Positions 2,401-63,225 of a stretch of 64,000 bases of DNA are shown here, piece after piece. The notes under the pieces were generated by a model. That model made no database searches. It saw only the letters and a program-made list of their open reading frames with translations, and was not told where the DNA came from. The translations under genes were made by a program, and so were the position numbers. Positions within the stretch are counted from its first letter, which is position 1, and the number at the start of each line of letters is the position of its first letter. Origin of the DNA: a virus; the IMG/VR virus record IMGVR_UViG_3300037247_000847, positions 1-64,000 of that record. The stretch is one strand, 5' to 3'.

Positions 2401-3156
2401 TTACCCCAAGATATAATCAATGATAGTCTTACCAACACGAAGATCGACAACCTCCGCTTCGTTGGCTCTCTGACGTGCCTGCTTTACGGCGCGCAAGATA
2501 GTATCAACACGGCCAATCAAGTCGGACTTTTCGGCAGGGCTTATCATGCCACTCCAAACCTGATCGCTGATCGTTCCGCACGGCTTGTCTACGGTCCAGG
2601 TATCAACCTGCGCTGGGAATTCCTTGGTCGGTTGAACGATGACCTTAGATTCCTTGATCTTCTCCGTCTTGAAACGCTTACGTGGTTCGGCGATCTTGTA
2701 CACATGACCAGCGCGGTCCTCATCGCGTACCCAGATAATACCTGGTTGGAGGGTAGGTATCGCCTCACACATGGTCCTGAACTGTCTCAAACGACTCTCC
2801 AAACCCAGTAGAAGAGTTCCGGGCAGAGCGGCAATCAGCACGTTACCATCTACTACCAAGTCGGCTCGTGCTTCTTGATTGGTGCGCTCCTTACGGGAGA
2901 TAGCGTCGTAGTATTTGACGAGATGCTTTCCGACATAGGAAAGTTTGTCACCAACCGTCGTTACCATAGCTTTGTGATCGGTGGTATTCTCGTCTTGACG
3001 CTCCTCATTGTGCATCCGCAATGAGCTGAGTTGCTCAATGAAATGCTCTGCCTTCTTGCTGAAGGTCTGAATTGCCTCCTCGATGACTTTAGTCGCCGTG
3101 TTTTGTAGATCACCTTCAACAGCGATGATCTCGTGAAGCTTCGTAGGTTTTGCCAT
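2401..3156 (-). CDS. conserved helical/coiled-coil protein of unknown function (resembles DUF7873-type proteins)
   Basis: KLHEIIAVE...NQEARADLVVDG...LLGLE...PAQV...WSGMISP...AVKQARQRAN pattern recalled from phage and actinobacterial proteins; GAGG SD. Confidence 0.7.
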   Translation of the reverse strand: MAKPTKLHEIIAVEGDLQNTATKVIEEAIQTFSKKAEHFIEQLSSLRMHNEERQDENTTDHKAMVTTVGDKLSYVGKHLVKYYDAISRKERTNQEARADLVVDGNVLIAALPGTLLLGLESRLRQFRTMCEAIPTLQPGIIWVRDEDRAGHVYKIAEPRKRFKTEKIKESKVIVQPTKEFPAQVDTWTVDKPCGTISDQVWSGMISPAEKSDLIGRVDTILRAVKQARQRANEAEVVDLRVGKTIIDYILG

Positions 3157-5321: not shown

Positions 5322-5414
5322 TAGACCTATTTTAGGACCGCCTCCAAGGCCTGCAGACGAGGATTTGACCCTTCAAGGGTAAAAACCCTACCTAATTTAG
5401 TTTCGTTGGTCTAC
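5322..5414 (-). repeat. dispersed ~93-bp repeat, copy A
   Basis: Reverse complement matches 63133-63225 with 2 mismatches and 35711-35782 partially; contains the ACCCTTGAAGGGT palindrome. Confidence 0.9.
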
Positions 5415-5437
5415 AGACGGTCCTAGCCTGGTTTCGG

Positions 5438-10693: not shown

Positions 10694-10705
10694 TTTCTCC
10701 TCCTA

Positions 10706-10773
10706 TTGGTTTGTCTCATCAGTGCCAAGATAACCAATCTTGACAGACCTAGGCTACCTGCCTAGGTTTCGAC
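10706..10773 (-). ncRNA. type II hammerhead ribozyme HHR6
   Basis: GTC GAAA CCTAGGC aggta GCCTAG GTC^ TGTCAAGA ttggtta TCTTGGCA CTGATGA GAC aAACCAA; compensatory changes relative to HHR5; cut 10746^10745. Confidence 0.95.
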
Positions 10774-10971
10774 TTATATCATTTCATCACCACCGTCGAT
10801 TCTCTTATAGTTAACTGGGTCATCGGTTTCGAGGGTGTGATACCCAGTAGGTTGTGTCCAAACCATGAAACGCGCCGCTGCGCTGCAGTGAGCTTCCAAC
10901 TCGGTAGCAAAACGTTGAGCATTACCCACTACTTCACCGTTTTGAAATTCAAACATTGGTCGGTACGACAT
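10774..10971 (-). CDS. hypothetical protein
   Basis: AGGAGGA SD; flanked by HHR7 and HHR6. Confidence 0.75.
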   Translation of the reverse strand: MSYRPMFEFQNGEVVGNAQRFATELEAHCSAAARFMVWTQPTGYHTLETDDPVNYKRIDGGDEMI

Positions 10972-12511: not shown

Positions 12512-12524
12512 GGTCTCCTCCTAT

Positions 12525-12601
12525 TAGTCTATCTCATCAGTGTCAGGAGACTATTCCTGACAGACCAGGGTAGGTGATTGCTCACCTACCCTGATTTCGA
12601 T
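12525..12601 (-). ncRNA. type II hammerhead ribozyme HHR9
   Basis: ATC GAAA TCAGGGTAGGTGA gcaa TCACCTACCCTG GTC^ TGTCAGGA atagtc TCCTGACA CTGATGA GAT aGACTA; GNRA loop III; cut 12563^12562. Confidence 0.93.
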
Positions 12602-13020
12602 TTATAGGAGGAGGAGATTTTTTCCCAACCGGGATAGTCCACTTACGAAGTGGAGGGTAACACCCTACGCGCTGCACGTGACCAATTTTCTTGTACTCGT
12701 TCCACCCCGTTGCGGTTCAAAGCGTTATACCACTTGGGGTAGCCATCGGCCTAGGTCCAGTATTGTTGCCCGTTAATGCTGGATTGACTACCAGCGGCGG
12801 TCAGCAGACAACCCGGACTAAGGTCTCTGGGGATCGTTCCACGTGTGCTTACGCAGGTTCACCCGGCTGACAGCGACTTCGCGGGAATTCCTTTCCCATC
12901 GCTGGGCCTCCTGGGGGTTCCGGCTATCCTCGCCACTACGCGTGAGGGGTGAGCTTTGCGCTTCTTCTCCCAGGGCCGCCCCATTCCCAGAGGCCTGGAT
13001 AACTAAATTCTTATCTAACT
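12602..13020 (-). ncRNA. candidate ~420-nt structured leader RNA of the early operon
   Basis: No convincing ORF; GC-rich with many hairpins; lies between a promoter and HHR9. Confidence 0.5.
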
Positions 13021-13731: not shown

Positions 13732-14274
13732 ATGGAGAAGATAAAGTTCAATCTCCCACTCTTGGAGCGTCTAGCTATGTTGGGTATGCCTGATAAGGAC
13801 ATTGCTAAGGCACTAGATATTAAACCAGCCAGGTTTAGTAAATATAAAAAGAAGCACTCTTCTATCAGGGCGACACTGCGGAAGGGTCGAATAATATCAT
13901 CAGCTAATGTAGTGGAGTCTCTCTACAAGAAAGCGAATGGTTTTTCGGTTCCTGAGGAGAAGTTGTTCTATAGTGCCAAGTACAATAGAGTGGTAAGAGC
14001 TAATACCCGAAAGTATTATCCACCTGACACTGTTGCTCAGATATTCTGGCTGAAAAACAACTTCCCAGATTTCTGGCGTGATAAGAAGGAGGTAGAGAAT
14101 ACTGGTGGTGTTGGAACAATTCAATCAGTGAAGTTCATATTGGTTCAGCCAGGAACGTCAGGTGAAAAGAGTGAAAAAGTAATTGATGGAGATTTCAAGA
14201 TACTTCCAGGAGCTGGACAAGAGGGGAGAGAACAGCAAGCTGGGTCTGGTAATACGAGTAAGGAAGTAGAATAA
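13732..14274 (+). CDS. terS: terminase small subunit (HTH type)
   Basis: LAMLGMPDKDIAKALDI HTH, VVESLYKKANG, PPDTVAQIFWLKN motifs; start reassigned to ATG 13732. Confidence 0.8.
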   Translation: MEKIKFNLPLLERLAMLGMPDKDIAKALDIKPARFSKYKKKHSSIRATLRKGRIISSANVVESLYKKANGFSVPEEKLFYSAKYNRVVRANTRKYYPPDTVAQIFWLKNNFPDFWRDKKEVENTGGVGTIQSVKFILVQPGTSGEKSEKVIDGDFKILPGAGQEGREQQAGSGNTSKEVE

Positions 14275-14957
14275 TGGGAGATAACCTAGGACGACGACGT
14301 GAGTTTACTTTTTTACCAGATAGTGAGATTGTTAAGACTATGTCTGAGACTATTTTAGTAGTAGGACAAAAGGCTGCTAACCCACCAGTGATGCCAAAAC
14401 CTGATCGCTTTGCTCTGTCCTTAAAAGTTGTGCGGCGTTGGGAAGGTGGTCTAGTTGATCACCCTTCTGACCCTGGTGGTATTACCAAGTGGGGCATTTC
14501 ACTGCGCTTCCTCCGTGCTATTGGTATTGATATTAACGGTGACGGTGTAATTGATGGTAGAGACATTAGGTCTTTGAATGAGAAGCAGGTTGAGAAGCTC
14601 TATCACGATCACTTCTGGTCAAAGTGTCATTGTGATTTTCTACCTGCTGGTGTTGATCTTGCTGTATTCGATTGTGGAGTGAACCAAGGACCAAACCGTG
14701 CGAAGGGGTTCCTCCAGAAAGCTTTGAAAGTCAAGGTTGATGGAAGAGTTGGTCCTATTACGCTCGCTGCTGTTGATAAGGCTGATCCTGCTGAGTTGTT
14801 GGGTGAGTTCATGGTCAGACGAGCTGTACACTATTCTGGTCTAGTAAACATGACCATATTTGGTCTAGGTTGGTTTAGGAGGATCTTTGATATTTACCGA
14901 GAAGCATTGGCTGTATTGAATACTAGTGATAATTTAACAGAAGAGGTGTTGAAATGA
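14274..14957 (+). CDS. endolysin, glycoside hydrolase family 108 with peptidoglycan-binding domain and a portal-derived N-terminal extension
   Basis: WEGGLVDHPSDPGGITKWGIS, FDCGVNQG, DGRVGPITL, FGLGWFRR. Confidence 0.9.
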   Translation: MGDNLGRRREFTFLPDSEIVKTMSETILVVGQKAANPPVMPKPDRFALSLKVVRRWEGGLVDHPSDPGGITKWGISLRFLRAIGIDINGDGVIDGRDIRSLNEKQVEKLYHDHFWSKCHCDFLPAGVDLAVFDCGVNQGPNRAKGFLQKALKVKVDGRVGPITLAAVDKADPAELLGEFMVRRAVHYSGLVNMTIFGLGWFRRIFDIYREALAVLNTSDNLTEEVLK

Positions 14958-15435: not shown

Positions 15436-15750
15436 ATGACTGATAAATATATGACAGCAACTGAAGTACAAGTCAGGATGAAGGAATCACTCAAACGTTT
15501 TCCAACTCCTAATTTTAATGGTATAATAAATGATATTGCCAGGAGATTACGACGGATAGCTCTTCAAGATGCATTACAAGGTTCATCTCAAGATCGTTTG
15601 AATTATTGTTTCGGTAGAGCAACTGCAAAACCAATTACTGATTTAGCATGTTATGGTACAGCTGTGTATGATCCAAACAAGCTGAGTGAATTGGCTATCA
15701 GGTGGTTCATACGTCTAGAGCGTTTGGCTCGGGGAAAAACAAAATGTTAG
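15436..15750 (+). CDS. small protein made of portal-like motifs
   Basis: MTATEV..R.KE and DL..YGTAV match the portal at 32072-33757. Confidence 0.7.
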   Translation: MTDKYMTATEVQVRMKESLKRFPTPNFNGIINDIARRLRRIALQDALQGSSQDRLNYCFGRATAKPITDLACYGTAVYDPNKLSELAIRWFIRLERLARGKTKC

Positions 15751-15995
15751 AATTTACTCGTCGAAAGTTTATGTGTTTAACTCCAGTCTCAATTGGGGCA
15801 GTTGCTTTGGGAGCTGTGGTTCTGCCGGAGATCACTCCACCGAAACGTAAAGTTACTGAGGCGATGTTAATCGCTGGTCAAAAGGCTGCTAATCCTCCTT
15901 TAATATATGGGCCAAATACTTTCTCAGGTGGTGTTTCATACACCGACTTTGAAAAGATTGGTGATCAATTGTTCTCTAGGGGAGAACTAGAATAA
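15744..15995 (+). CDS. small protein with twin-arginine-like N-terminus and a portal-like motif
   Basis: TRRKFM plus hydrophobic stretch, then LIAGQKAANPP...NTFSGGVSY.D. Confidence 0.7.
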   Translation: MLEFTRRKFMCLTPVSIGAVALGAVVLPEITPPKRKVTEAMLIAGQKAANPPLIYGPNTFSGGVSYTDFEKIGDQLFSRGELE

Positions 15996-15998
15996 ACA

Positions 15999-17252
15999 AT
16001 GGATCTGAGTATTAAGGTTGCAGAGATATTTAGACCTCTCCTGTCTCCGTCAAGATACAAAGGTGCACACGGCGGACGAGGGTCAGGTAAGAGCCATTTC
16101 TTTGCAGGAACTGCAGTCGCACTCTGTATACAATCTCCTGGGTCTCGCATCGTCTGTGCACGAGAGGTTCAGCGATCATTGAGAGACAGTGTAAAACTTC
16201 TCGTCGAGGACAAGATAAGAGAGTTTGGAGTTGAGAATCATTTCAAGATCATGTACGATCATATCAGAACTCCAGGACAGGGTCTGATCGTCTTTCAGGG
16301 ACTACAGGATCATACAGCAGAGAGTATTAAATCTTTAGAAGGATTTGACGCTGCATATTTAGAAGAGGCTCACACGATCACCAAGAGATCTCTTGAGCTA
16401 CTTCGACCAACGATCCGGAAGCCTGGATCTCAGATATGGGCGTCTTGGAACCCAAGACTAGCGACTGATCCAATCGATACACTGTTGAGAGGAGAGTTCC
16501 CTCCTCCTAGCTCGATTGTCGTCAAGGCAGACTGGAGAGACAATCCCTGGTTCCCTGAGTCTTTAGAGGAGGAGCGATCCTACGACGAGATAGTCAATCC
16601 AGTGCGTTATGCTCATATTTGGGAGGGTGAGTACGAACCACAAGTCGTCGGTGCACTCTGGAACCGAGAGATGATCATAGCAGGGAGGGTGAATGCTCCT
16701 CCTCATCTCAAGAGAGTTGTGATTGGGGTTGACCCTCCTACATCGTCTGAGGAGGATGCAGATGAGTGTGGGATCATTGCTGTAGGTTTAGGTGATGACG
16801 GACATGGTTATGTTCTAGCTGATGAAAGTATTCAAGGTAAACCTGAAACTTGGGCGAGACGTGTTGTAGCTCTCCATGATATACTCGAAGCTAATACTGT
16901 TGTAGCAGAGGTGAATCAGGGTGGGGATATGGTTGAACATACGATTCACTCTGTTAGAAAGGCTGTTAGGGTCATTAAGGTTCGTGCGATTAAAGGTAAG
17001 GTTCTGAGAGCAGAACCTATCAGTGCTCTTTATTCATTAGGGAGAATTCATCACGTTGGATCCTTCCCCAAACTCGAAGGTCAGATGTGTCAGATTACCT
17101 CAGATGGATATCACGGTAATGGATCGCCGGATCGTGTTGATGCTATGGTATATGGATTAACTAATTTGTTTGGACCTATGACGCGTCGTCCTCTCCCTCC
17201 AGGAGCTTCAAGACCTAGTCGAACGGTAGCAAGAGCTGGAATGAGGGTGTGA
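15999..17252 (+). CDS. terL: terminase large subunit (PBSX-like ATPase plus RNase H-like nuclease)
   Basis: HGGRGSGKS Walker A, AYLEEA Walker B, SWNP, IGVDP, EVNQGG, SPDRVDA. Confidence 0.95.
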   Translation: MDLSIKVAEIFRPLLSPSRYKGAHGGRGSGKSHFFAGTAVALCIQSPGSRIVCAREVQRSLRDSVKLLVEDKIREFGVENHFKIMYDHIRTPGQGLIVFQGLQDHTAESIKSLEGFDAAYLEEAHTITKRSLELLRPTIRKPGSQIWASWNPRLATDPIDTLLRGEFPPPSSIVVKADWRDNPWFPESLEEERSYDEIVNPVRYAHIWEGEYEPQVVGALWNREMIIAGRVNAPPHLKRVVIGVDPPTSSEEDADECGIIAVGLGDDGHGYVLADESIQGKPETWARRVVALHDILEANTVVAEVNQGGDMVEHTIHSVRKAVRVIKVRAIKGKVLRAEPISALYSLGRIHHVGSFPKLEGQMCQITSDGYHGNGSPDRVDAMVYGLTNLFGPMTRRPLPPGASRPSRTVARAGMRV

Positions 17253-19701: not shown

Positions 19702-19911
19702 ATGGAACGACAATCAGTGTCTTCGTCCAATCTCTCGTCCGTAGGTTACGACGAGAGTACCGAAACCTTGGAAGTGCAGTTTCAAAATGGCTCTGTGTTT
19801 CAGTATCACGATGTACCGGCAGAAACCCACGGACAGCTAGTAAATGCTAGGTCGGTAGGGAGTTTCTTCAGCAGCAACATAAGAAATTCCTTTGCACACT
19901 CCAAACTCTAA
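19702..19911 (+). CDS. KTSC domain protein
   Basis: VSSSNLSSVGYD...LEVQF.NG..YHDVP...SVGSFF.NIR. Confidence 0.9.
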   Translation: MERQSVSSSNLSSVGYDESTETLEVQFQNGSVFQYHDVPAETHGQLVNARSVGSFFSSNIRNSFAHSKL

Positions 19912-19926
19912 ACACAGGAGATAAAT

Positions 19927-20052
19927 ATGCCACAACATCCAGGTTCCGGGGGACGTCCAAAGCCGAGACCAAAACCTGTCAAGAAACCGAAGCCTTTTTA
20001 TGCAGGTGATTGGGTAGATAAATTAAACGAAGCTATCGTGAAGAAATCATAA
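19927..20052 (+). CDS. 41-aa peptide carrying a major-capsid motif (not in the ORF track)
   Basis: AGGAG SD; MPQHPGSGGRPKPRPKPVKKPKPFYAGDWVDKLNEAIVKKS; TAATG coupling to the next gene. Confidence 0.75.
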   Translation: MPQHPGSGGRPKPRPKPVKKPKPFYAGDWVDKLNEAIVKKS

Positions 20053-20255
20053 TGGCAACAGTAGTCCCCTATAGTGCCAACAAACAACACGTGCGGCTGT
20101 TTGAGGTAGGAGACACCGCACGTGAAGGGCCTCATAAGACATTTACTCTAAACGCCGGTGAGATACCTGGCTACGAGATGGTACGCGAGGTGAGTGACTT
20201 TATTGGTTCTCCTACTGGTGAAGTAACTGGTGTTCTTACAATCACAGCTACGTAA
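20052..20255 (+). CDS. hypothetical protein
   Basis: Translationally coupled ORF. Confidence 0.6.
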   Translation: MATVVPYSANKQHVRLFEVGDTAREGPHKTFTLNAGEIPGYEMVREVSDFIGSPTGEVTGVLTITAT

Positions 20256-31269: not shown

Positions 31270-32067
31270 ATGGGACACGCTAAGGACATGGTCCCGGCAT
31301 TGATGATGCCTGGAGAGTTTGCCGTCCCGCCGGACCGGCTGACGCCTGAAACGCTTGCGGCCATCAAGTCTGATTTGAAAGCCAACGGTATTGCCTTCGA
31401 TGACCACATCGTCGGCAGTCCGTCGGTCCCCATCGATCCCGACTCCGGCCTGCCGATGTTCAATGGTGGTGCCGGTGGCGGTGCCGGTAGCGGTCTCGGT
31501 GGTGGTAGTAGAGGTGGTCGGGACCGTGGCGGACGCGCTGGTGGTGTTGGTACCGCGAATGTAGGTGGTGGTTTCAGTAGCACTTCCGCGAACAAGGCTC
31601 GAGCAGAGAGATCACAGAGCCCATCGAAAGCACTTGGCCTAGATCCTATTTCAGCGGCTGCTATTCCTGGTATCGGGGCAGCTGATCTCGCACATAGTCT
31701 TGCTAAGGCAATTGGGCCAGCAATTCAAGGAGCCTTCGAAAGTGTCTTCGGGGTAAAAGGAACTGCTCCTGCTATTGATACAAGTTTCACCGATGTCCCT
31801 GGTGTTGATGACAGGCCTGATCGCCGCCGTGTGAGAAGTTCAATTCTCCTTGCGGACGCACTTGGGAAGATTACACCTATAACAGCCAATGCAGAGAATG
31901 TTGTAAATACCCCTACTTCAGCAGACAAAGCTGCTGAACGAGTACGTTTAGCAGCGAAAAAGAGAAGAGGCAGACGTGCATCGATCTTAGCTAATATTAG
32001 TGAAGAGGAGGCTCAGTTGACTAATATTAGTCGTCCAGGAGCTGGTTCGCTGACCTTTGGTGGTTAG
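31270..32067 (+). CDS. pre-portal virion-associated protein
   Basis: C-terminal KKRRGRRASIL...LTFGG typical of the gene before podovirus portals. Confidence 0.65.
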   Translation: MGHAKDMVPALMMPGEFAVPPDRLTPETLAAIKSDLKANGIAFDDHIVGSPSVPIDPDSGLPMFNGGAGGGAGSGLGGGSRGGRDRGGRAGGVGTANVGGGFSSTSANKARAERSQSPSKALGLDPISAAAIPGIGAADLAHSLAKAIGPAIQGAFESVFGVKGTAPAIDTSFTDVPGVDDRPDRRRVRSSILLADALGKITPITANAENVVNTPTSADKAAERVRLAAKKRRGRRASILANISEEEAQLTNISRPGAGSLTFGG

Positions 32068-32071
32068 AATA

Positions 32072-33757
32072 ATGGCTAGTAATTTGGTAAGAGCGAAACG
32101 CCGTATAGAGCGTTGGAGGAGTTTTAAGACCAATAAAGGTCAGTGGTTGTCACACTGGGAGGACCTTGCACGTCTTATGTTGCCAAGACGTATGGGATTT
32201 ATTACTCAGATGACAGAGGGTGAGCGTCGTACTGAAGAGATTTATGACTCTACTGCTATGCGTGCTGCTCGAGGTCTAGCCAATGCTGTGGGTCAACTAC
32301 TTCGGCCTGAGGGAGAAAAGTTTTTCTTTATCCGAGCTGAGGATGACGGATTGAACCAATCTGATGAGGTCCAAGATTGGTTAAAAAGATCTGAGGACCG
32401 TCTTCATAATTCAATTTTCAATCCCAAAGCTAGATTTAGACAAGCCACTGGTGAAGCCGATATGGACTTGGTAGTTTTCGGTACAGCTGTTAATTTTGTA
32501 GGGCTATCACGTAAGGCACGACGTCTAAAGTTTCTTACCATAGACCTCAAGGATGTTGACATAGTTCTTGATGAAGAAGGTAATCCAGACACGGTTTTTC
32601 AACATCGACGTTTTACCTTGAGACAAGCAGGGCAGAGATTTACTAAAGAGAGATTGAGTGAGGATCTTAGAAGACGTCTTGAAGATCAGAGTGATGCTAA
32701 TCTCGATACGAAATATGACTTCTTACGTGTCGTAGAGCCGCGTGCAAATGGTAAGGTCGACGCTGCCTTGGCGCGAAACATGCCATTTACAAATGATTGG
32801 ATAGAGATCGATTCAGCGCATGAAGTAAGTGAAGGGGGTTTTAGAGAATTCCCGTTTGTAATCCCTCGTTGGGACACTTCTTCTGGAGAAGTCTATGGTC
32901 GTAGTCCTGGTATGATAGCTCTACCAGATAGTGAGACGTCTAATGCTATGTCTGAGACTATTTTAGTAGCAGGACAAAAGGCTGCTGACCCACCATTTTT
33001 TGCACCGAATGATAGTTCATTTGATGCCATAAATTCATTTTCTGGTGGAATATCCTATTATGATGTGGATACTGCAGTACAACTTCGTGGTAATCCCTTT
33101 TTCTCTATGAAAAATGATTATAACTTACCAATTACAAGAGATATGCAGTTTGATACTCGTCAACAGATAGAAGCAGCATTTTTTAAGAACGTATTTAATC
33201 TACCTATACGTGGGCCAGAAATGACAGCTACTGAGGTGATTACTCGTAAGGAAGAGTTTATTCGGGAGATGGGTGCTACATTTGGTAGGCTCGAGAGTGA
33301 TTATTTAGCTCCTCAAGTTGAGAAATCTTTTAGTCTATTACTTAGGGCTGGGGAATTTGACCCCATCCCAGAAATACTGTTAGAACGCGACGTGCGTTTT
33401 GAATATACGTCACCAATTAAGAGGATTCGTGAGCAGGCTGAAGCGGCTGCTACCAGGTTGTGGGTACAGGAGTTAATAGAGCTAGAACCTATCAAACCAG
33501 AAATCATGGATAACGCGAACTTAGACGAAGTTGCTCGTCACGCGGCTCGTGCTCTAGACCTACCAACAGGTGTGGTTACGTCACAAGATGATGTAGTAGA
33601 AATAAGAACCCAACGTGCAGAAGCAGAGAGTGATGCTCTTGAACGAGAAAGGGTTGCTCAAGAAGCAGGGATCGCGGCTACTGGTGGTAAGGCAGTTAAG
33701 GATATAAGTCAGGCTTTGGAGGGGGTTTCCCCTGAAGCTTTGCAGGAGATAGTTTAA
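32072..33757 (+). CDS. portal (head-tail connector) protein, podovirus type
   Basis: IYDSTA, DLVVFGTA, PRW..SGEVYGRSPG, MTATEV..R.EE, FEYTSP motifs. Confidence 0.95.
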   Translation: MASNLVRAKRRIERWRSFKTNKGQWLSHWEDLARLMLPRRMGFITQMTEGERRTEEIYDSTAMRAARGLANAVGQLLRPEGEKFFFIRAEDDGLNQSDEVQDWLKRSEDRLHNSIFNPKARFRQATGEADMDLVVFGTAVNFVGLSRKARRLKFLTIDLKDVDIVLDEEGNPDTVFQHRRFTLRQAGQRFTKERLSEDLRRRLEDQSDANLDTKYDFLRVVEPRANGKVDAALARNMPFTNDWIEIDSAHEVSEGGFREFPFVIPRWDTSSGEVYGRSPGMIALPDSETSNAMSETILVAGQKAADPPFFAPNDSSFDAINSFSGGISYYDVDTAVQLRGNPFFSMKNDYNLPITRDMQFDTRQQIEAAFFKNVFNLPIRGPEMTATEVITRKEEFIREMGATFGRLESDYLAPQVEKSFSLLLRAGEFDPIPEILLERDVRFEYTSPIKRIREQAEAAATRLWVQELIELEPIKPEIMDNANLDEVARHAARALDLPTGVVTSQDDVVEIRTQRAEAESDALERERVAQEAGIAATGGKAVKDISQALEGVSPEALQEIV

Positions 33758-35669: not shown

Positions 35670-35710
35670 TATGACCAATCATCTACCTCCAAGGCCCGCA
35701 GGTAGCGGAG

Positions 35711-35782
35711 ACTAAATTAACGGGGTTTTTACCCTTGAAGGGTCAAATCCTCCCCTGCAGGCCTTGGAGGCGGTCCTAAAAT
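35711..35782 (+). repeat. dispersed repeat, copy B (partial)
   Basis: GGGTTTTTACCCTTGAAGGGTCAAATCCTC..CTGCAGGCCTTGGAGGCGGTCCTAAAAT. Confidence 0.9.
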
Positions 35783-35981
35783 ACTATCTAAGCTATTTAT
35801 TAGGTCTTTTCGGTGGCTCCTTACATTATCTATGTAACCCCACTTAAGATCACCGAGGACTCAGACAGCCCACTGATGCGCTAACCACGTTCCAGCATTG
35901 CTGGCCCCCGTGGCTGAGTATTAAGTGCTCCCTGAGTAGAGGTCTTCGCTCTTGCACAATCGCAATAACAGGAGCGAAAAA

Positions 35982-36875
35982 ATGAGTACGTCTATCGATC
36001 AGGCATTTATCACCTCTTTCGAGGCGAAAGTGCATGAAGTGTTTCAGCGGAAGGGAGCCTATCTCAAGGATGCCGTCCGTCTGAAAACCGATGTGGTTGG
36101 TGCCACTGCCGTCTTCCAGAAAGTCGGTAAGGGTACTGCTACGACAAAGTCTCGGCATGGTACAATCGTGCCGATGAACCAAGAGCATACAGCACCGTCT
36201 GTTACTCTGCAAGACTTCTATGCAGGTGACTGGGTGGACAAGCTCGATGAAGCGAAGATTAACATCAATGATCGTGATGTGATCGCTTCAGGCGGTGCTC
36301 AGGCATTGGGTAGGAAGGTTGATGACCAGATTACTACGGTTCTCGATACTACTACCCAGGCCGCAGTCACCCTAACCCTTTCCAACAAAGGTAATGTCCT
36401 TGCCTCACTGTTGGAGTTGGTCGAAGCGGTGTGGGCGAATGACGTGCCAAATGATGGGGAGAACTTCGCTGTTATGACACCTCGTCTTTGGTCTCAGGCC
36501 ATGACGCTCGATCAGTTCAACCGGGCGGAGTACGTAGGAGCTGATGGGATGGTCTTCAAGCAGGGACCTAAAATCGGTGTTGCTGCGTGGAAGAACTGGA
36601 TGAACATCAAGTGGAAGATGCAGACTGGGCTTCCTGGAGCTGCTACGGCTTCAGGCAAGTCTTGGGTCTGGAACATGATGGCTATCGGCTACGCTATCGC
36701 GAAGTCGGCAGGTAATGTTGCTGGACGTGAGTCTGTTTCAGCGGACATCACTTGGCACGGTGATCGTGCAGCTCACTTCGTCAACAACATGATGAGTGGT
36801 AATGCTGTCATGATCGACGATACGGGTGTCATTGAAGCAAACTTCAATGATACAACCGCAATCGTTACGTCGTAG
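35982..36875 (+). CDS. major capsid protein
   Basis: MSTSIDQAFITSF...FQKVGKGTATTKSRHG...DFYAGDWVDKLDE...ALGRKVD; AGGAG SD; start reassigned to ATG 35982. Confidence 0.93.
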   Translation: MSTSIDQAFITSFEAKVHEVFQRKGAYLKDAVRLKTDVVGATAVFQKVGKGTATTKSRHGTIVPMNQEHTAPSVTLQDFYAGDWVDKLDEAKININDRDVIASGGAQALGRKVDDQITTVLDTTTQAAVTLTLSNKGNVLASLLELVEAVWANDVPNDGENFAVMTPRLWSQAMTLDQFNRAEYVGADGMVFKQGPKIGVAAWKNWMNIKWKMQTGLPGAATASGKSWVWNMMAIGYAIAKSAGNVAGRESVSADITWHGDRAAHFVNNMMSGNAVMIDDTGVIEANFNDTTAIVTS

Positions 36876-45392: not shown

Positions 45393-47199
45393 ATCGGTTT
45401 ACTTTAACGAATATAACATCCGTATGGGGTCACTGTCGTATCTACCCTTGGTATCAGGGTTGTTGCGTGCTCATGCGGAAACGTCGGAGATGGTCAGGCG
45501 GGAATATACGTTCAAGCCATTTATCTATGTTAATGACGCACCACAAACCATTCTTGACCGTTACAACAGCCCAGCGGTTGCCGCATTCTCATCCTTTATG
45601 TGGAATGAGCAACTCAACCATACGATCGCGCGAGAGGTTAAGGCATCTTGGCCTGAGTGCCTGATTGTATTTGGTGGACCGCAAGTTCCTCATCATCCAA
45701 TGGAGTACATGAAAGAACGACCTTGGATCGACGTGTGTGTCCGTGCCGAGGGTGAAGTGGCCTTCACCGAGGTGCTAGAGCGCTTCGTTGAAACAACTGA
45801 TTTCTCGGCTATTCCTGGTATAACATGGCAAGGAGGTGAAAACCATGGGGAGCGTCCTTTCTCACGTGATCTCGACGAATTGCCATCGCCTTATTTGGAG
45901 GGACTCTATGATACGTTGGTTGAAGGTGGAGATAGTTTCCAAGCCATTATCGAAACTAACCGTGGATGCCCCTTTCACTGCACATTCTGCTATTGGGGTA
46001 AGGGTGGCCTTAGTCGAAAATATAAATATTTCGGATTGGAGCGGATCTATCGTGAATTAGAATGGTGTGCCAAACACAAAATAAAGTACATCTTCAATGC
46101 CGACAGTAATTTCGGCATGAACAAACGCGATACCGAGATTGCAGATTTTCTGGTTGATCTCAAGGAACGAACCGGGTTCCCCGATAAGTTCCGCACATGT
46201 TACGGCAAGAATACGGACGAAAAGATATTTGCTATTGGCTCACTGTTTCACAAGCACAAGTTGGAAAAGGGCATCACGTTGGCTCGGCAGTCCAATGACA
46301 AAACGGTGTTGAAGAATATCAAGCGTGGTAATATATCTATGGATACCTACAAGAACCTACAGGAGCGTTTCAACCACGAAAATATCCCAATTTATTCGGA
46401 GTTGATCCTTGGATTACCAGGGGAGACGGTTGAGAGTTGGCGGAATGGTATTGATGAATTGTTGAGGGCTGGGCTCAAGAATCAACTGTTTGTTTATTTC
46501 TGCCAGGTCTACCCAAATACTGATCTCGGAGATCCGGGGTATCAGAAAGAATTTGGTATTGTTACCCAGCAGGTACCACTTAACGAAATTCATGGAACGA
46601 TTCATTATGAAGCATTTTGGGTAACGGAATACGAGGAAATCGTAGTCGCTACTGATAGTATGCCAACCGAGGATTGGCGGCAGATGGCTATTCTATCGTG
46701 GGTCACGATGTTGATGCATAGTCTCAAGCTGGGCTACTTTGTGATGGAGTGGATGCATGACGAACATGACGTACCTCATATTGAGTTTTTGGAATACCTC
46801 GCTACAGGTTTAGGAGATGGTCCGATAGCCCGTGAAATAGCAATTTTCAATGCTACGCTTGATGACATGCTGGTTGGGAAGGGACGTGGTTGTGTCATTG
46901 ATGACTGTGGTAATACCTATTGGGATATCGAGGAAGCCAGTTTTATCCGCTGTATGCGAAGTCCACATGATTTTTATTGGGAAGACCTGTACTTTCAAGT
47001 TAAAATGTTTCTCTTTGATTATTGGAGAAAAAATGGCTTCGGCGAGCGCTCAAAGATAAAAAGAAGTTTATCTGAAGTGATCGAATATCAGAAGTCGCGT
47101 ATACCAACCATCGAGATGTTTGACGGTAACGTAGAACGCTGGGCTCGTGAGACCATCTTATGGGGTCGCAAGAGTGGAACGATGTTGGTGCCTGAATGA
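45382..47199 (+). CDS. cobalamin-binding radical SAM enzyme
   Basis: FGGP, AEGE, ETNRGCPFHCTFC, ADSNFG, ELILGLPGET. Confidence 0.9.
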   Translation: MPNKSVYFNEYNIRMGSLSYLPLVSGLLRAHAETSEMVRREYTFKPFIYVNDAPQTILDRYNSPAVAAFSSFMWNEQLNHTIAREVKASWPECLIVFGGPQVPHHPMEYMKERPWIDVCVRAEGEVAFTEVLERFVETTDFSAIPGITWQGGENHGERPFSRDLDELPSPYLEGLYDTLVEGGDSFQAIIETNRGCPFHCTFCYWGKGGLSRKYKYFGLERIYRELEWCAKHKIKYIFNADSNFGMNKRDTEIADFLVDLKERTGFPDKFRTCYGKNTDEKIFAIGSLFHKHKLEKGITLARQSNDKTVLKNIKRGNISMDTYKNLQERFNHENIPIYSELILGLPGETVESWRNGIDELLRAGLKNQLFVYFCQVYPNTDLGDPGYQKEFGIVTQQVPLNEIHGTIHYEAFWVTEYEEIVVATDSMPTEDWRQMAILSWVTMLMHSLKLGYFVMEWMHDEHDVPHIEFLEYLATGLGDGPIAREIAIFNATLDDMLVGKGRGCVIDDCGNTYWDIEEASFIRCMRSPHDFYWEDLYFQVKMFLFDYWRKNGFGERSKIKRSLSEVIEYQKSRIPTIEMFDGNVERWARETILWGRKSGTMLVPE

Positions 47200-48059
47200 A
47201 GGCTCTATTTGTCACGCCAGAATCTCATGAGCTTGTCTTAGCGTGGAATTCGTGGAATGAGCCAGCTACGCACAAGACGTTTAATGTTTGGGACGAGCCC
47301 GACGATGAAAGCATATTGCAAATTGTTAGAGACACTGCGCCGGATGTGATCTTTTATGTTGGTGGTAATGCAGGTAAAGGCTTACCATCATTCAAGACGT
47401 TTCGGGATCTTCGAAACCTGGCACCTCTTATTCATTTATGTTGGGATGCAACTGACGTCGCTTGGCACGCGACCCTTGCGGAATACAAAAGATACGAGTG
47501 TTTCAATCTCCAGGTTGCAATGGATGGAGGAACGGACTCTCCGGTAGATATGGCTACATTGACGCCGTGTGATCCACGGCCATATGAACGAAGCAGTGAC
47601 GTAAGAAATATCAGGTGTGCTTTTGCTGGGCAGAATGTCAACAGAGCGTTTAATCCTATTGATCAACACCCTCGGTGGAATATCCTGATGCCCCTGGTTA
47701 AAATGAAGTTGGTCAAATACCGGAAACGAAATGCTGGACCATATAGTGATTATGTAGAGTATATTAAGAACTGTCAGATATTGCTCAACATCTCACATAC
47801 TGGATCGGGTAGGGCTCATCATGTCAAGGTACGTGTTATTGAAGCTGGACTTGCTGGATGTGCCCTTTTGGAAATGAGACAAGCACCAACTAGTAAATGG
47901 ATACCGAAGGAATTGTTATTTCAGTATAGAAATATTAAAGAAGCAGCAGAGATAATTCGTTCAGCCGAGATAGAGGACAAGGCTTCTGCATTAGGTACGT
48001 ATGTGCGTGAGAATTATAGTCCACAGCGGATTTACGAAAGCATTCTGGATCGGCTATGA
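47196..48059 (+). CDS. GT-B glycosyltransferase (CgeB-like), paralog 1
   Basis: PDVIFYVG, CFNLQV..DG, HHVKVRVIEAGLAGCALLE. Confidence 0.75.
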   Translation: MKALFVTPESHELVLAWNSWNEPATHKTFNVWDEPDDESILQIVRDTAPDVIFYVGGNAGKGLPSFKTFRDLRNLAPLIHLCWDATDVAWHATLAEYKRYECFNLQVAMDGGTDSPVDMATLTPCDPRPYERSSDVRNIRCAFAGQNVNRAFNPIDQHPRWNILMPLVKMKLVKYRKRNAGPYSDYVEYIKNCQILLNISHTGSGRAHHVKVRVIEAGLAGCALLEMRQAPTSKWIPKELLFQYRNIKEAAEIIRSAEIEDKASALGTYVRENYSPQRIYESILDRL

Positions 48060-48928
48060 AAGCGGTCTTTGTAACGACATTTCCTAATGACGTAGCCAAT
48101 GTGATTGCAGCTTGGGATTGCTGGAATGAGGTTAAATCCGAGCGGATTATTTTTGACTTCCGTCAAGTTATCGACGACGCAGATATTTTGCGCCGTGCGG
48201 AGGCAGCTTCACCGGACGTAATTTTTTATGTTGGTGGTTGTGGTGGACCAATGCACTTACCCACCATTGCGACGCTCCAAGCATTGAAGGAAATGGCCCC
48301 TTCTATTAATTTGATTTTTGACGGTATCGAGGATGCATGGTATGAAATGATTGCGAAATACAAGCAGCATGAATGCTTCAATTTGCAGGTTACTATTGAC
48401 GGGTGTCCCGACGCTCCTGTTGATTTGGTCACCACTGCTCCGGTTGATACGAGGTTGTTTGCGGGGGAAGATCCACCCAAGGATATCCCCTGCGGGATTT
48501 CGGGAAACATTGGCCGTGGTGATAAGAGGTCGAAAATCATCAATCCGTTGATATGGGAAGGTCTAGTAGAAATGAGGAGGAGGGATGTGGTTGGGGATGG
48601 GTTCCCGGAGCACGTTGCCTTTATGCGAAGATGCCAAATGATCATTAACACGTCTTTTACAGGTTCAGGCAACAAACATCATGTAAAGCAGCGTGTGTTC
48701 GAAACCGGGTTTGCTGGAGCTGCCTTACTTGAATGTGAAGCAGCCCCAACACATTTCTGGATACCACAGTCATATTTCTTTAGGTACAAAAATACTTTAC
48801 ACGCAAGTCAGATTATTAAGACACTCGACGCGAGGGAGATTGCGGAAAAGGGTCAAATGTTGCAACAATATGTTAGGGCTCATTATATGCCAGAGCAAGT
48901 ATATGGTGCAATGTTGGATCGATTATGA
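48056..48928 (+). CDS. GT-B glycosyltransferase (CgeB-like), paralog 2
   Basis: PDVIFYVG, CFNLQV..DG, HHVKQRVFETGFAGAALLE. Confidence 0.75.
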   Translation: MKAVFVTTFPNDVANVIAAWDCWNEVKSERIIFDFRQVIDDADILRRAEAASPDVIFYVGGCGGPMHLPTIATLQALKEMAPSINLIFDGIEDAWYEMIAKYKQHECFNLQVTIDGCPDAPVDLVTTAPVDTRLFAGEDPPKDIPCGISGNIGRGDKRSKIINPLIWEGLVEMRRRDVVGDGFPEHVAFMRRCQMIINTSFTGSGNKHHVKQRVFETGFAGAALLECEAAPTHFWIPQSYFFRYKNTLHASQIIKTLDAREIAEKGQMLQQYVRAHYMPEQVYGAMLDRL

Positions 48929-49953
48929 GGGCATTATTCGTTACCAGCTCGACGTCCGATGTAGATAGTCTCGTTCGTGCCTGGGATTGCTGGCAGCCTG
49001 ACAAATCTATCCGCGTGATGTTTCCCCACATGGGGGAGCCTAGAGACGAGAAAATTCTGGCTATAGCTAGGGAAATGCGACCGGATATTATTTTCTACAT
49101 TGGAGCCAATGAAGGTTCAGGTATTCCTTCGATGGAAACGTTTTTGAGACTTCGGGAAATGGCTCCGTCGATCAACCTTTGTTGCGATGCTGGGGATACG
49201 CCGTGGTACGAACCTTTGAAGCGTTACAAAAAAGCGGGGTGTTTCAATCTGCAAGTTGCGCTTGATGGCTATCTTAATGCTCCGGTCGATCTTGTGACCA
49301 TAACCCCGGTCGATCCTGCACCGTACATTCAGCCTGTCGCGTGGAAACGCTTCATCCGGTGTGGGTTTTCGGGAGGGGTATCTTCCAAGGAAAGGCTTGC
49401 TGTTTTCAAAGTAAGCTTTGCAAGCCGGATGCCACCAAAGATCGTTAAGAAGCGCCCTCGCAATGCGTTGCCTGCTTGGAAGCCACTGTATAAGAAACAT
49501 CCCGACATGCCACCTCCAGTGCCAACCACACAGCGGGACAAGATCGTTTGGGGTCTTGAGAACATGAAAGACATTATCACTGTGCGGCGGCGAACATCCA
49601 AGGCCCCTTATTCCGATCACGTCGCATTTATGCAGTCGTGTCATATAATCATAAATACGTCAACCAGTGGAACGGGAGACACACATCAAATTAAGGGGCG
49701 TGTTCTCGAAGCTGGATGGGCTAAATGCGCGCTACTTGAATCAGTAGGCTCGCCAATAGCCGAGTGGCTACCAGAAGAAAGTTATTTCATTTACCGTGAT
49801 GCTGATCATGCGAAGGACCTGATCAAAAGTCTAACAGTTGAGCAAGTCACAAAATCAGCGCTCGTACTAAATGAATATGTGGAGAATCATTATCACCCTC
49901 GTCAGATTTACGGCGAGATTTTGGAGCGAGCTGGTGTGGATTATTCCGTCTAG
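48925..49953 (+). CDS. GT-B glycosyltransferase (CgeB-like), paralog 3, with Pro/Lys-rich insertion
   Basis: PDIIFYIG, CFNLQV..DG, HQIKGRVLEAGWAKCALLE. Confidence 0.75.
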   Translation: MRALFVTSSTSDVDSLVRAWDCWQPDKSIRVMFPHMGEPRDEKILAIAREMRPDIIFYIGANEGSGIPSMETFLRLREMAPSINLCCDAGDTPWYEPLKRYKKAGCFNLQVALDGYLNAPVDLVTITPVDPAPYIQPVAWKRFIRCGFSGGVSSKERLAVFKVSFASRMPPKIVKKRPRNALPAWKPLYKKHPDMPPPVPTTQRDKIVWGLENMKDIITVRRRTSKAPYSDHVAFMQSCHIIINTSTSGTGDTHQIKGRVLEAGWAKCALLESVGSPIAEWLPEESYFIYRDADHAKDLIKSLTVEQVTKSALVLNEYVENHYHPRQIYGEILERAGVDYSV

Positions 49954-62695: not shown

Positions 62696-63106
62696 GTGGC
62701 TGTGCATGAAGTAATTGAAAGTGGTATGATCAAACCACTAATGTATGGTGAGGTATCAACTACTTGTCCTTGTTGTGGTCATGTGTCATACTCAACAACT
62801 GGTTTAATCAGTTTTGATTATTGGAAGGGGTTGGTCTTTAAGAAAGATAAACGGATATGTTTAGAGCCTATGGAAGCTGATCTGTTAAAGATCTTGCTAG
62901 ATAATTGGCCTAAAATCTGCTCTAGAGAGAAATTATTAGTAGGTCTCTACGGGGGTAATTATTGTGAAAGAGTATCTAGTGATAATGTTGGTGTACTTAT
63001 ATCTAAGCTTAGACATAAGATCAAGATATTTGATATTGAAATAAAGAACACTAAACGTCGGGGGTGGTTGCTTGTTAAGAAACCTACAGAACGACGATTT
63101 AATTAA
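62696..63106 (+). CDS. stand-alone OmpR/PhoB-type winged-helix DNA-binding protein with CPCCG motif
   Basis: L.PME..LL..L, SREKLL..LYG, V.VLISKLR.K, I.N...GW.L; AGGAGG SD. Confidence 0.8.
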   Translation: MAVHEVIESGMIKPLMYGEVSTTCPCCGHVSYSTTGLISFDYWKGLVFKKDKRICLEPMEADLLKILLDNWPKICSREKLLVGLYGGNYCERVSSDNVGVLISKLRHKIKIFDIEIKNTKRRGWLLVKKPTERRFN

Positions 63107-63132
63107 GAGATAAAGAGACCCCTCACAAGCCC

Positions 63133-63225
63133 GTAGACCAACGAAACCAAATTAGGTAGGGTTTTTACCCTTGAAGGGTCAAATCCTCGTCTGCAGGCCT
63201 TGGAGGCGGTCCTAAAATAGGTTTA
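63133..63225 (+). repeat. dispersed ~93-bp repeat, copy C
   Basis: Inverted near-identical copy of 5322-5414. Confidence 0.9.

Follow-up and report, generated by a model that had tools for sequence, protein, structure and literature searches.

A conserved phage micro-gene with a tail probably captured from a foreign capsid gene

Between a KTSC-domain gene and orf67, an uncultivated viral genome carries an ORF of 41 codons that begins with ATG at position 19927 and ends with TAA at positions 20050–20052 (Table 1). The genome (95,947 bp, with direct terminal repeats; IMG/VR record IMGVR_UViG_3300037247_000847) comes from a marine-sediment metagenome, and the window analysed here is its first 64 kb (64,000 nucleotides). 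An earlier note on this DNA had described the ORF as having a Shine–Dalgarno (SD) sequence of its own, AGGAG, and a TAATG coupling to the next gene; re-reading the coordinates confirmed this layout. No terminator-like site was found from the KTSC gene to orf67, and it is plausible that this stretch forms a single transcription unit. An independent Logan contig from the source run covers the region without differences, and in contigs from three sequencing runs the KTSC contigs of relatives part from this sequence after position 19906. Neither the 41-residue peptide nor orf67 gave a match in Pfam or PHROGs, and for orf67 a protein atlas returned nothing beyond sub-threshold leads. The 41-residue peptide alone was predicted to be extended over residues 1–25 and helical over residues 26–40.

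Table 1. Coordinates of the micro-ORF, its parts and neighbours, and of other features in the same genome (window positions unless marked as genome positions)
Feature	Position	Strand	Remarks
KTSC-domain gene	19702..19911	+	PF13619, E 6.5e-24; syntenic in most relatives
Shine–Dalgarno sequence AGGAG	19916..19920	+	6 nt upstream of the micro-ORF ATG
Conserved part of the micro-ORF	19927..19990	+	Met to ..VKKP plus the first base of the next codon; common to 16 relatives
Direct repeat CGAAGC	19988..19993, second copy 20028-20033	+	Flanks 40 nt that include the capsid-like piece
Lineage-specific 59-nt block	19991..20049	+	Extends the ORF to 41 aa; absent in 16/16 relatives
Capsid-gene-like 39-nt piece	19996..20034	+	In the capsid frame; 12 of its 13 residues as in the resident capsid
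Five more codons and TAA	20035..20052	+	TAA overlaps the orf67 ATG (TAATG)
orf67	20052..20255	+	Conserved partner gene, 67 aa
GH108 endolysin	14274-14957		
Large terminase (terL)	15999-17252		
T7-type portal	32057-33757		PF12236
Major capsid protein gene	35982..36875	+	HK97 fold, PF19821; resident motif copy at 36216-36254
Dispersed repeat copies	5325-5423	+	
	63106-63222	-	
	35675-35776		
	87876-88073 (genome)		
	75383-75538 (genome)		

Residues 24–36 of the ORF are identical to the resident major capsid protein in all but one position; seven codons (for F, D, V, D, K, L and A) differ only synonymously from those of the capsid gene, and one differs non-synonymously (N versus D). This 13-residue motif, which the earlier note had reported in the same terms, proved real and lies far beyond chance. 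Self-BLAST of all six-frame ORFs returned the pairing of ORF and capsid with an E value of 3.8e-8, whereas 20 shuffled capsids reached at most 8 of 13 matches to the motif. A hidden Markov model (HMM) of the capsid clade, run over six frames, recovered the ORF (E 2.5e-5) and had no other match outside the capsid gene. On the ORF, that model covers profile positions 79–94 only, and a Pfam search with the 41-residue sequence gave no match to PF19821, the full domain of which is about 290 residues long. The ORF contains a fragment of a capsid and is not a PF19821 capsid protein.

The capsid gene itself is genuine. It matches PF19821 with an E value of 3e-45, and its AlphaFold model (pLDDT 83) is a plain HK97 fold for which the best solved match in Foldseek is the LME-1 phage capsid 9eg4 (TM 0.70). 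Its start is more likely the ATG at 35982, giving 297 residues, than the TTG at 35952 chosen by the ORF tool. About 1.5 kb downstream, in the structural module, lies a gene for a B12-binding radical SAM protein (PF02310 and PF04055; 38443–39927).

When IMG/VR was searched with a degenerate DNA pattern for the first nine residues of the motif, the motif was found to be invariant in at least 120 capsid genes of one PF19821 sub-clade. In all the matches listed it stands about 80–130 codons into the open frame of a capsid gene of about 300 codons. The listed capsids are 43–76% identical overall to the resident capsid, and the residues on either side of the pattern, on which the search set no condition, are kept in them as well. 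The motif is the most conserved block of the sub-clade and is absent from the more distant capsids reached via the terminase; by this comparison, it is an invariant block of one large capsid sub-clade. Since the block is invariant across the clade, any two capsid genes of the clade are expected to differ there only synonymously. No copy outside a capsid gene was found elsewhere in IMG/VR, and the pattern combined with a preceding codon that does not begin with G gave 0 matches.

Mapping the motif on the capsid model, a check that the earlier note had proposed, placed it in a strand (residues 77–86) and the turn that leads into the spine helix (residues 95–121). According to the model, the segment is part of the core of the fold, in the P-domain/E-loop sheet, rather than an epitope exposed loosely at the surface. 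The single D-to-N replacement in the ORF concerns a residue with a conservation of at least 90% among the capsids.

Searching public metagenome contigs with orf67 brought up 16 relatives (L208–L223), all of them contigs from marine sediment, in which orf67 is 81–99% identical in protein and 74–92% in DNA. The order of the KTSC gene, a histone-like gene and orf105 is conserved among them. Every one of the 16 has, upstream of orf67, a micro-ORF of 22–27 codons with the same start region as the 41-codon ORF. The encoded peptide is basic and rich in proline and lysine, with a core, HPG(S/P)GGRPKPRPKP, that is identical or nearly so in our phage and all 16 relatives; the length of the Lys-Pro run varies among the relatives, and an end directly behind that run belongs to our definition of the family. 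The SD of the micro-ORF is strong in all 10 relatives for which the anti-SD duplex was computed (−7.4 to −11.6 kcal/mol). Over a core of 14 codons, pS is 0.44 and pN 0.03 (pN/pS 0.07); third positions vary while the peptide is kept. By this pattern of change the micro-ORF is a real coding gene, and the ORF at 19927–20052 is probably translated.

The micro-ORF stands between the KTSC gene or variable genes on one side and orf67 on the other, and it is the immediate upstream neighbour of orf67 in 13 of the 16 relatives. In the remaining three another ORF stands between the two, which argues that the micro-protein is more than a leader of orf67. The Pro/Lys-rich part of the 41-residue peptide, taken for a leader in the earlier note, is the conserved gene itself; what has been added is the capsid-like part. 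The description of the peptide as unannotated held in one sense and failed in another. Its 41-residue form, for which a second contig is on record, is already present as a predicted protein in a collection of 5.8 billion predicted proteins, and the conserved micro-gene to which it belongs has been missed by gene callers. The micro-ORF is too short for such programs, so a search of that collection returned the 41-residue form only; the collection held no other protein of 22–72 residues with the capsid motif. What comes newly into view is a strongly constrained micro-gene for a Pro/Lys-rich peptide of 22–27 residues, in a group of marine-sediment phages and below the length that gene finders report.

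Searches of reference collections brought little more. A pattern scan of IMG/VR for the micro-ORF core gave 0 matches and a search of IMG/VR with orf67 found no relative; among phage records, the region had no blastn match and the peptide only a chance match by tblastn (E 6). The KTSC gene led to three loci in IMG/VR, none syntenic with ours. TerL led to 80 loci of at most 62% identity, on podovirus-like contigs of 35–45 kb without the small ORFs. In these terminase relatives the genes for capsid and portal are no more than a few kb away from terL; in our genome terL is about 15 kb from the portal gene, and a block of higher GC content (52–56%, at about 20–30 kb) separates the two.

What the micro-protein does can be guessed at from its composition. 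The peptides of the relatives gave weak compositional matches to PF16031 in Pfam (E about 0.8–1; 10.4–10.8 bits against a cut-off of 33). With the Lys-Pro repeat rod of TonB, which that family describes, the micro-peptide has only its Lys-Pro composition in common, and it carries no TonB domain. The alternation of lysine and proline suggests an extended segment of polyproline-II type. The peptide also contains G-G-R-P-K-P, a very short motif; Pfam, with E values up to 10, gave no match to the AT-hook family PF02178 for our peptide or those of four relatives, which for so short a motif says little. A literature search on the micro-ORF motif returned only unrelated substance-P constructs. Our guess would be a basic peptide of polyproline-II type that binds nucleic acid or an acidic partner.

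None of the 16 relatives has the capsid-like tail, and the capsid HMM finds nothing in their loci. DNA alignment with the nearest type of relative shows a shared sequence up to position 19990, then 59 nt in our phage against 5 nt in the relative, and rejoins at TAATG. The net insertion of 54 nt (18 codons), made up of the 39 capsid-like nucleotides and a few codons on each side, is the reason that our copy has 41 codons. Two alignments fit the junction, one with an in-frame insertion of 54 nt and the other with an insertion of 40 nt and a change of frame. Downstream of the piece, positions 20035–20052 bear a partial likeness to the old 3′ end and intergenic stretch of the relatives, minus their GAGG ribosome site. 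Besides the CGAAGC pair, the junction has a further direct repeat, AAGAAA, at 19981 and 20041; the CGAAGC copies are possibly the microhomology used in the insertion. Other insertions occur at the same place in three relatives. In L211 (2856–3000) an ORF of 44 codons starts on the micro-ORF stop (TGATG) and finishes on what was formerly the end of the micro-ORF; between the micro-ORF and orf67 of both L213 and L218, at about 2600–3000, lies an ORF for a basic protein of about 110 residues. On the evidence of these three, the junction of micro-ORF and orf67 is a recurrent insertion site.

The capsid-like piece is no closer to the resident capsid gene than to other members of the family. Its DNA is identical to that gene in 29 of 39 positions, against a mean of 28.8 of 39 over 120 listed family members and a best value of 34 of 39, and the DNA that flanks it has only random similarity to capsid genes. 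Between the piece and the resident gene, 8 of 12 informative third positions differ, and silent sites are saturated. For orf67, 18–27% of third positions differ between our phage and its nearest relatives (pS 0.25–0.34), and the contrast with the piece has a binomial P of 0.0003–0.005; the age bound that follows rests on the premise of a common history for orf67 and the insertion, and the region is plainly a mosaic. Because the tail is absent from all relatives, the insertion postdates the split from those sampled, and because the silent divergence of the piece from the resident capsid gene is greater than that of orf67, a copy of the resident gene is an unlikely source. The simplest account of these distances is that the piece would stem from the capsid gene of a different clade member, met, for example, in a co-infection. 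An exact search of IMG/VR with the first 26 nt of the piece gave 0 matches, so the donor gene was not found there. Mutagenesis of the type caused by diversity-generating retroelements (DGR) is ruled out, the differences not being adenine-specific.

In the relatives, orf67 has an SD inside or just after the end of the micro-ORF (−3.0 to −8.2 kcal/mol); in our phage alone it is lost (−1.0 kcal/mol). orf67 is under strong purifying selection (pN/pS about 0.02–0.15). From the loss of its SD, this selection and the lack of a terminator, we infer that orf67 is now made by termination–reinitiation at TAATG. Selection would then probably keep the frame open as far as TAATG and need not keep the capsid-like amino acids. 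A piece of this kind has a priori a chance of about 1 in 6 of lying in the sense orientation and in the capsid frame without a stop; selection for an open frame to TAATG would account for part of the sense and in-frame fit, though not for the choice of the capsid frame.

Taken together, these observations make it likely, in our judgement, that the ORF consists of a conserved micro-gene and a recently captured fragment of a foreign capsid gene, and that it arose from an accident of recombination and is not a capsid decoy. Its two parts would be of different ages, the first 22 or so codons being an old conserved gene and the last 18–19 codons belonging to this phage alone. Illegitimate recombination, probably assisted by microhomology, would have inserted about 40 nt of capsid-gene DNA at the 3′ end of the micro-ORF, the donor being a clade member other than the resident gene. 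The piece would have landed in the capsid frame and removed the old stop and the SD of orf67, leaving an ORF that now ends at the TAA overlapping the start of orf67, with ribosomes carried on to TAATG. The synonymous-only differences from the resident capsid would then have arisen under selection in two capsid genes, prior to the capture. As to origin, the earlier note had suggested that the peptide was under selection or else captured from a related phage, and as to role, that it was a capsid-epitope decoy or assembly modulator. Capture is supported by the saturation of silent sites and by the equal distance to the capsids of the clade; selection on the peptide does not agree with a tail that is absent from 16 of 16 relatives, and the decoy or modulator is unsupported, given a D-to-N change at a near-invariant position and this absence of the motif, which is among the observations that the earlier note had listed as refuting its idea.

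Could the tail nevertheless be a new functional mimic of the capsid, mounted on a basic peptide, that binds a capsid partner and tunes assembly or blunts a capsid-triggered defence? The piece is in frame and in the sense orientation behind a strong SD, and the block that it represents is the best conserved in the sub-clade; in-frame patches of the portal protein also occur in the endolysin N-terminus and in a 97-residue ORF. Short capsid segments that meet host factors have precedents in the Gol region of T4 gp23 and in the capsid protein that CapRel is said to sense; we know of no free-standing Gol gene. In gp23, the major capsid protein of T4, it is the Gol region that binds EF-Tu and switches on the Lit protease (PMC3014915). 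The parallel would be that a short stretch of the N-terminal quarter of a capsid protein with HK97 fold can by itself serve as ligand of a non-phage protein; Gol differs in being part of the capsid protein itself, in triggering a defence and in having no sequence similarity to the peptide. Against a mimic stand the lack of the tail in every relative, its being the only non-capsid copy in IMG/VR, and the fact that no selection on the tail is demonstrable and that its sole amino-acid change hits a position so conserved in capsids. In the capsid model, moreover, the segment is part of the fold, a P-domain/E-loop strand running into the spine helix, whereas the lone peptide is predicted to be helical there and need not copy the capsid conformation. 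Co-folding of the capsid with the 41-residue peptide scored 0.00, under the mark, which carries no weight either way, and a literature search on phage capsid mimics or decoys found nothing specific. We regard a functional mimic as unlikely.

Two patches of portal sequence were seen elsewhere in the genome. At its N-terminus the GH108 endolysin is extended by about 44 residues that are homologous to portal residues of about 290–314, and the endolysin DNA at 14314–14387 matches the portal gene at 32922–32995 in frame, with a core of 46 of 48 nt. Directly before terL, a 97-residue ORF with a Tat-like signal (15702–15995) has, at 15856–15901, another copy of that portal segment, one that has diverged further. 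With tblastn, both patches match the portal genes of other phages. They could point to something more systematic than accident. An adaptive capture, in which the tail would be a nascent mimic of a structural protein parallel to the portal-segment grafts on the endolysin and the Tat-signal mini-protein, nevertheless seems to us quite improbable.

It is very unlikely that the peptide is an ancient copy of the phage's own capsid segment, kept under purifying selection since the duplication. The count of ten synonymous nucleotide changes to one non-synonymous change (P about 3e-7 under neutral drift) would fit such a history, but the tail, missing in all relatives, can only have been copied after the split from them, while its silent divergence is greater than such a date permits, and the resident capsid is no closer to it than are other clade members. 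There is a caution here for the reading of such comparisons: in a block that is invariant across a clade, synonymous-only differences do not show selection on a new copy, and relatives are needed.

It is equally hard to credit that there is no gene product at all, the ORF being untranslated, an assembly chimera or the relic of a decayed second capsid gene: the genome is indeed an uncultivated metagenomic assembly, but the core of the micro-ORF is under strong purifying selection and always has its SD, the independent contig from the source run crosses the site, and a chimera is unlikely for a piece that, at 39 nt, falls short of the length of a read. The relic is rejected outright, since the capsid HMM finds no further remnants near the site and the loci of the relatives, which hold none either, show that there was never a capsid gene in this place.

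Seen as a foreign fragment captured by a micro-gene, the locus is what phage mosaicism ordinarily produces, here with a mechanistic twist. Illegitimate recombination makes mosaic junctions in phage genomes, as in the view of Hendrix and Hatfull. Our locus shares with such junctions a short foreign piece near a gene boundary, direct repeats, a variable site and neighbours that must still work; it differs in that only about 40 nt were involved, taken from the best-conserved block of a capsid gene, which kept their original frame and became the tail of a micro-protein. Translationally coupled, overlapping genes with termination–reinitiation at TAATG or ATGA are likewise common in phage operons. 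The overlap of the ORF's stop with the start of orf67, which here has no usable SD, is of this kind; what sets it apart is that orf67 has its own SD in most relatives, and dependence on coupling, as judged from sequence, would be new in our phage. The locus thus offers an example of the birth of a gene tail, in which a fragment of about 40 nt makes a new tail and would leave the next gene dependent on coupling in place of a ribosome site of its own. Should the tail turn out to be functional, the locus would record how a capsid-mimic peptide comes into being.

Other features of the window were noted in passing. Two type II hammerhead ribozymes lie on the minus strand at 10705–10774 and 12523–12602 (40.6 and 40.8 bits, against an Rfam gathering score of 37). 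A tRNA gene at 2049–2124, also on the minus strand, reaches the Rfam tRNA score (48 bits), and ARAGORN names no anticodon for it (‘tg’ at position 35). Identical ‘ORF’ translations in the self-comparison brought to light a family of dispersed repeats of about 90–100 nt that occur on both strands and reach up to 100% identity between distant sites. Two adjacent paralogous genes, at 47196–48059 and 48925–49953, encode proteins of 287 and 342 residues that are about 40% identical over their full length.
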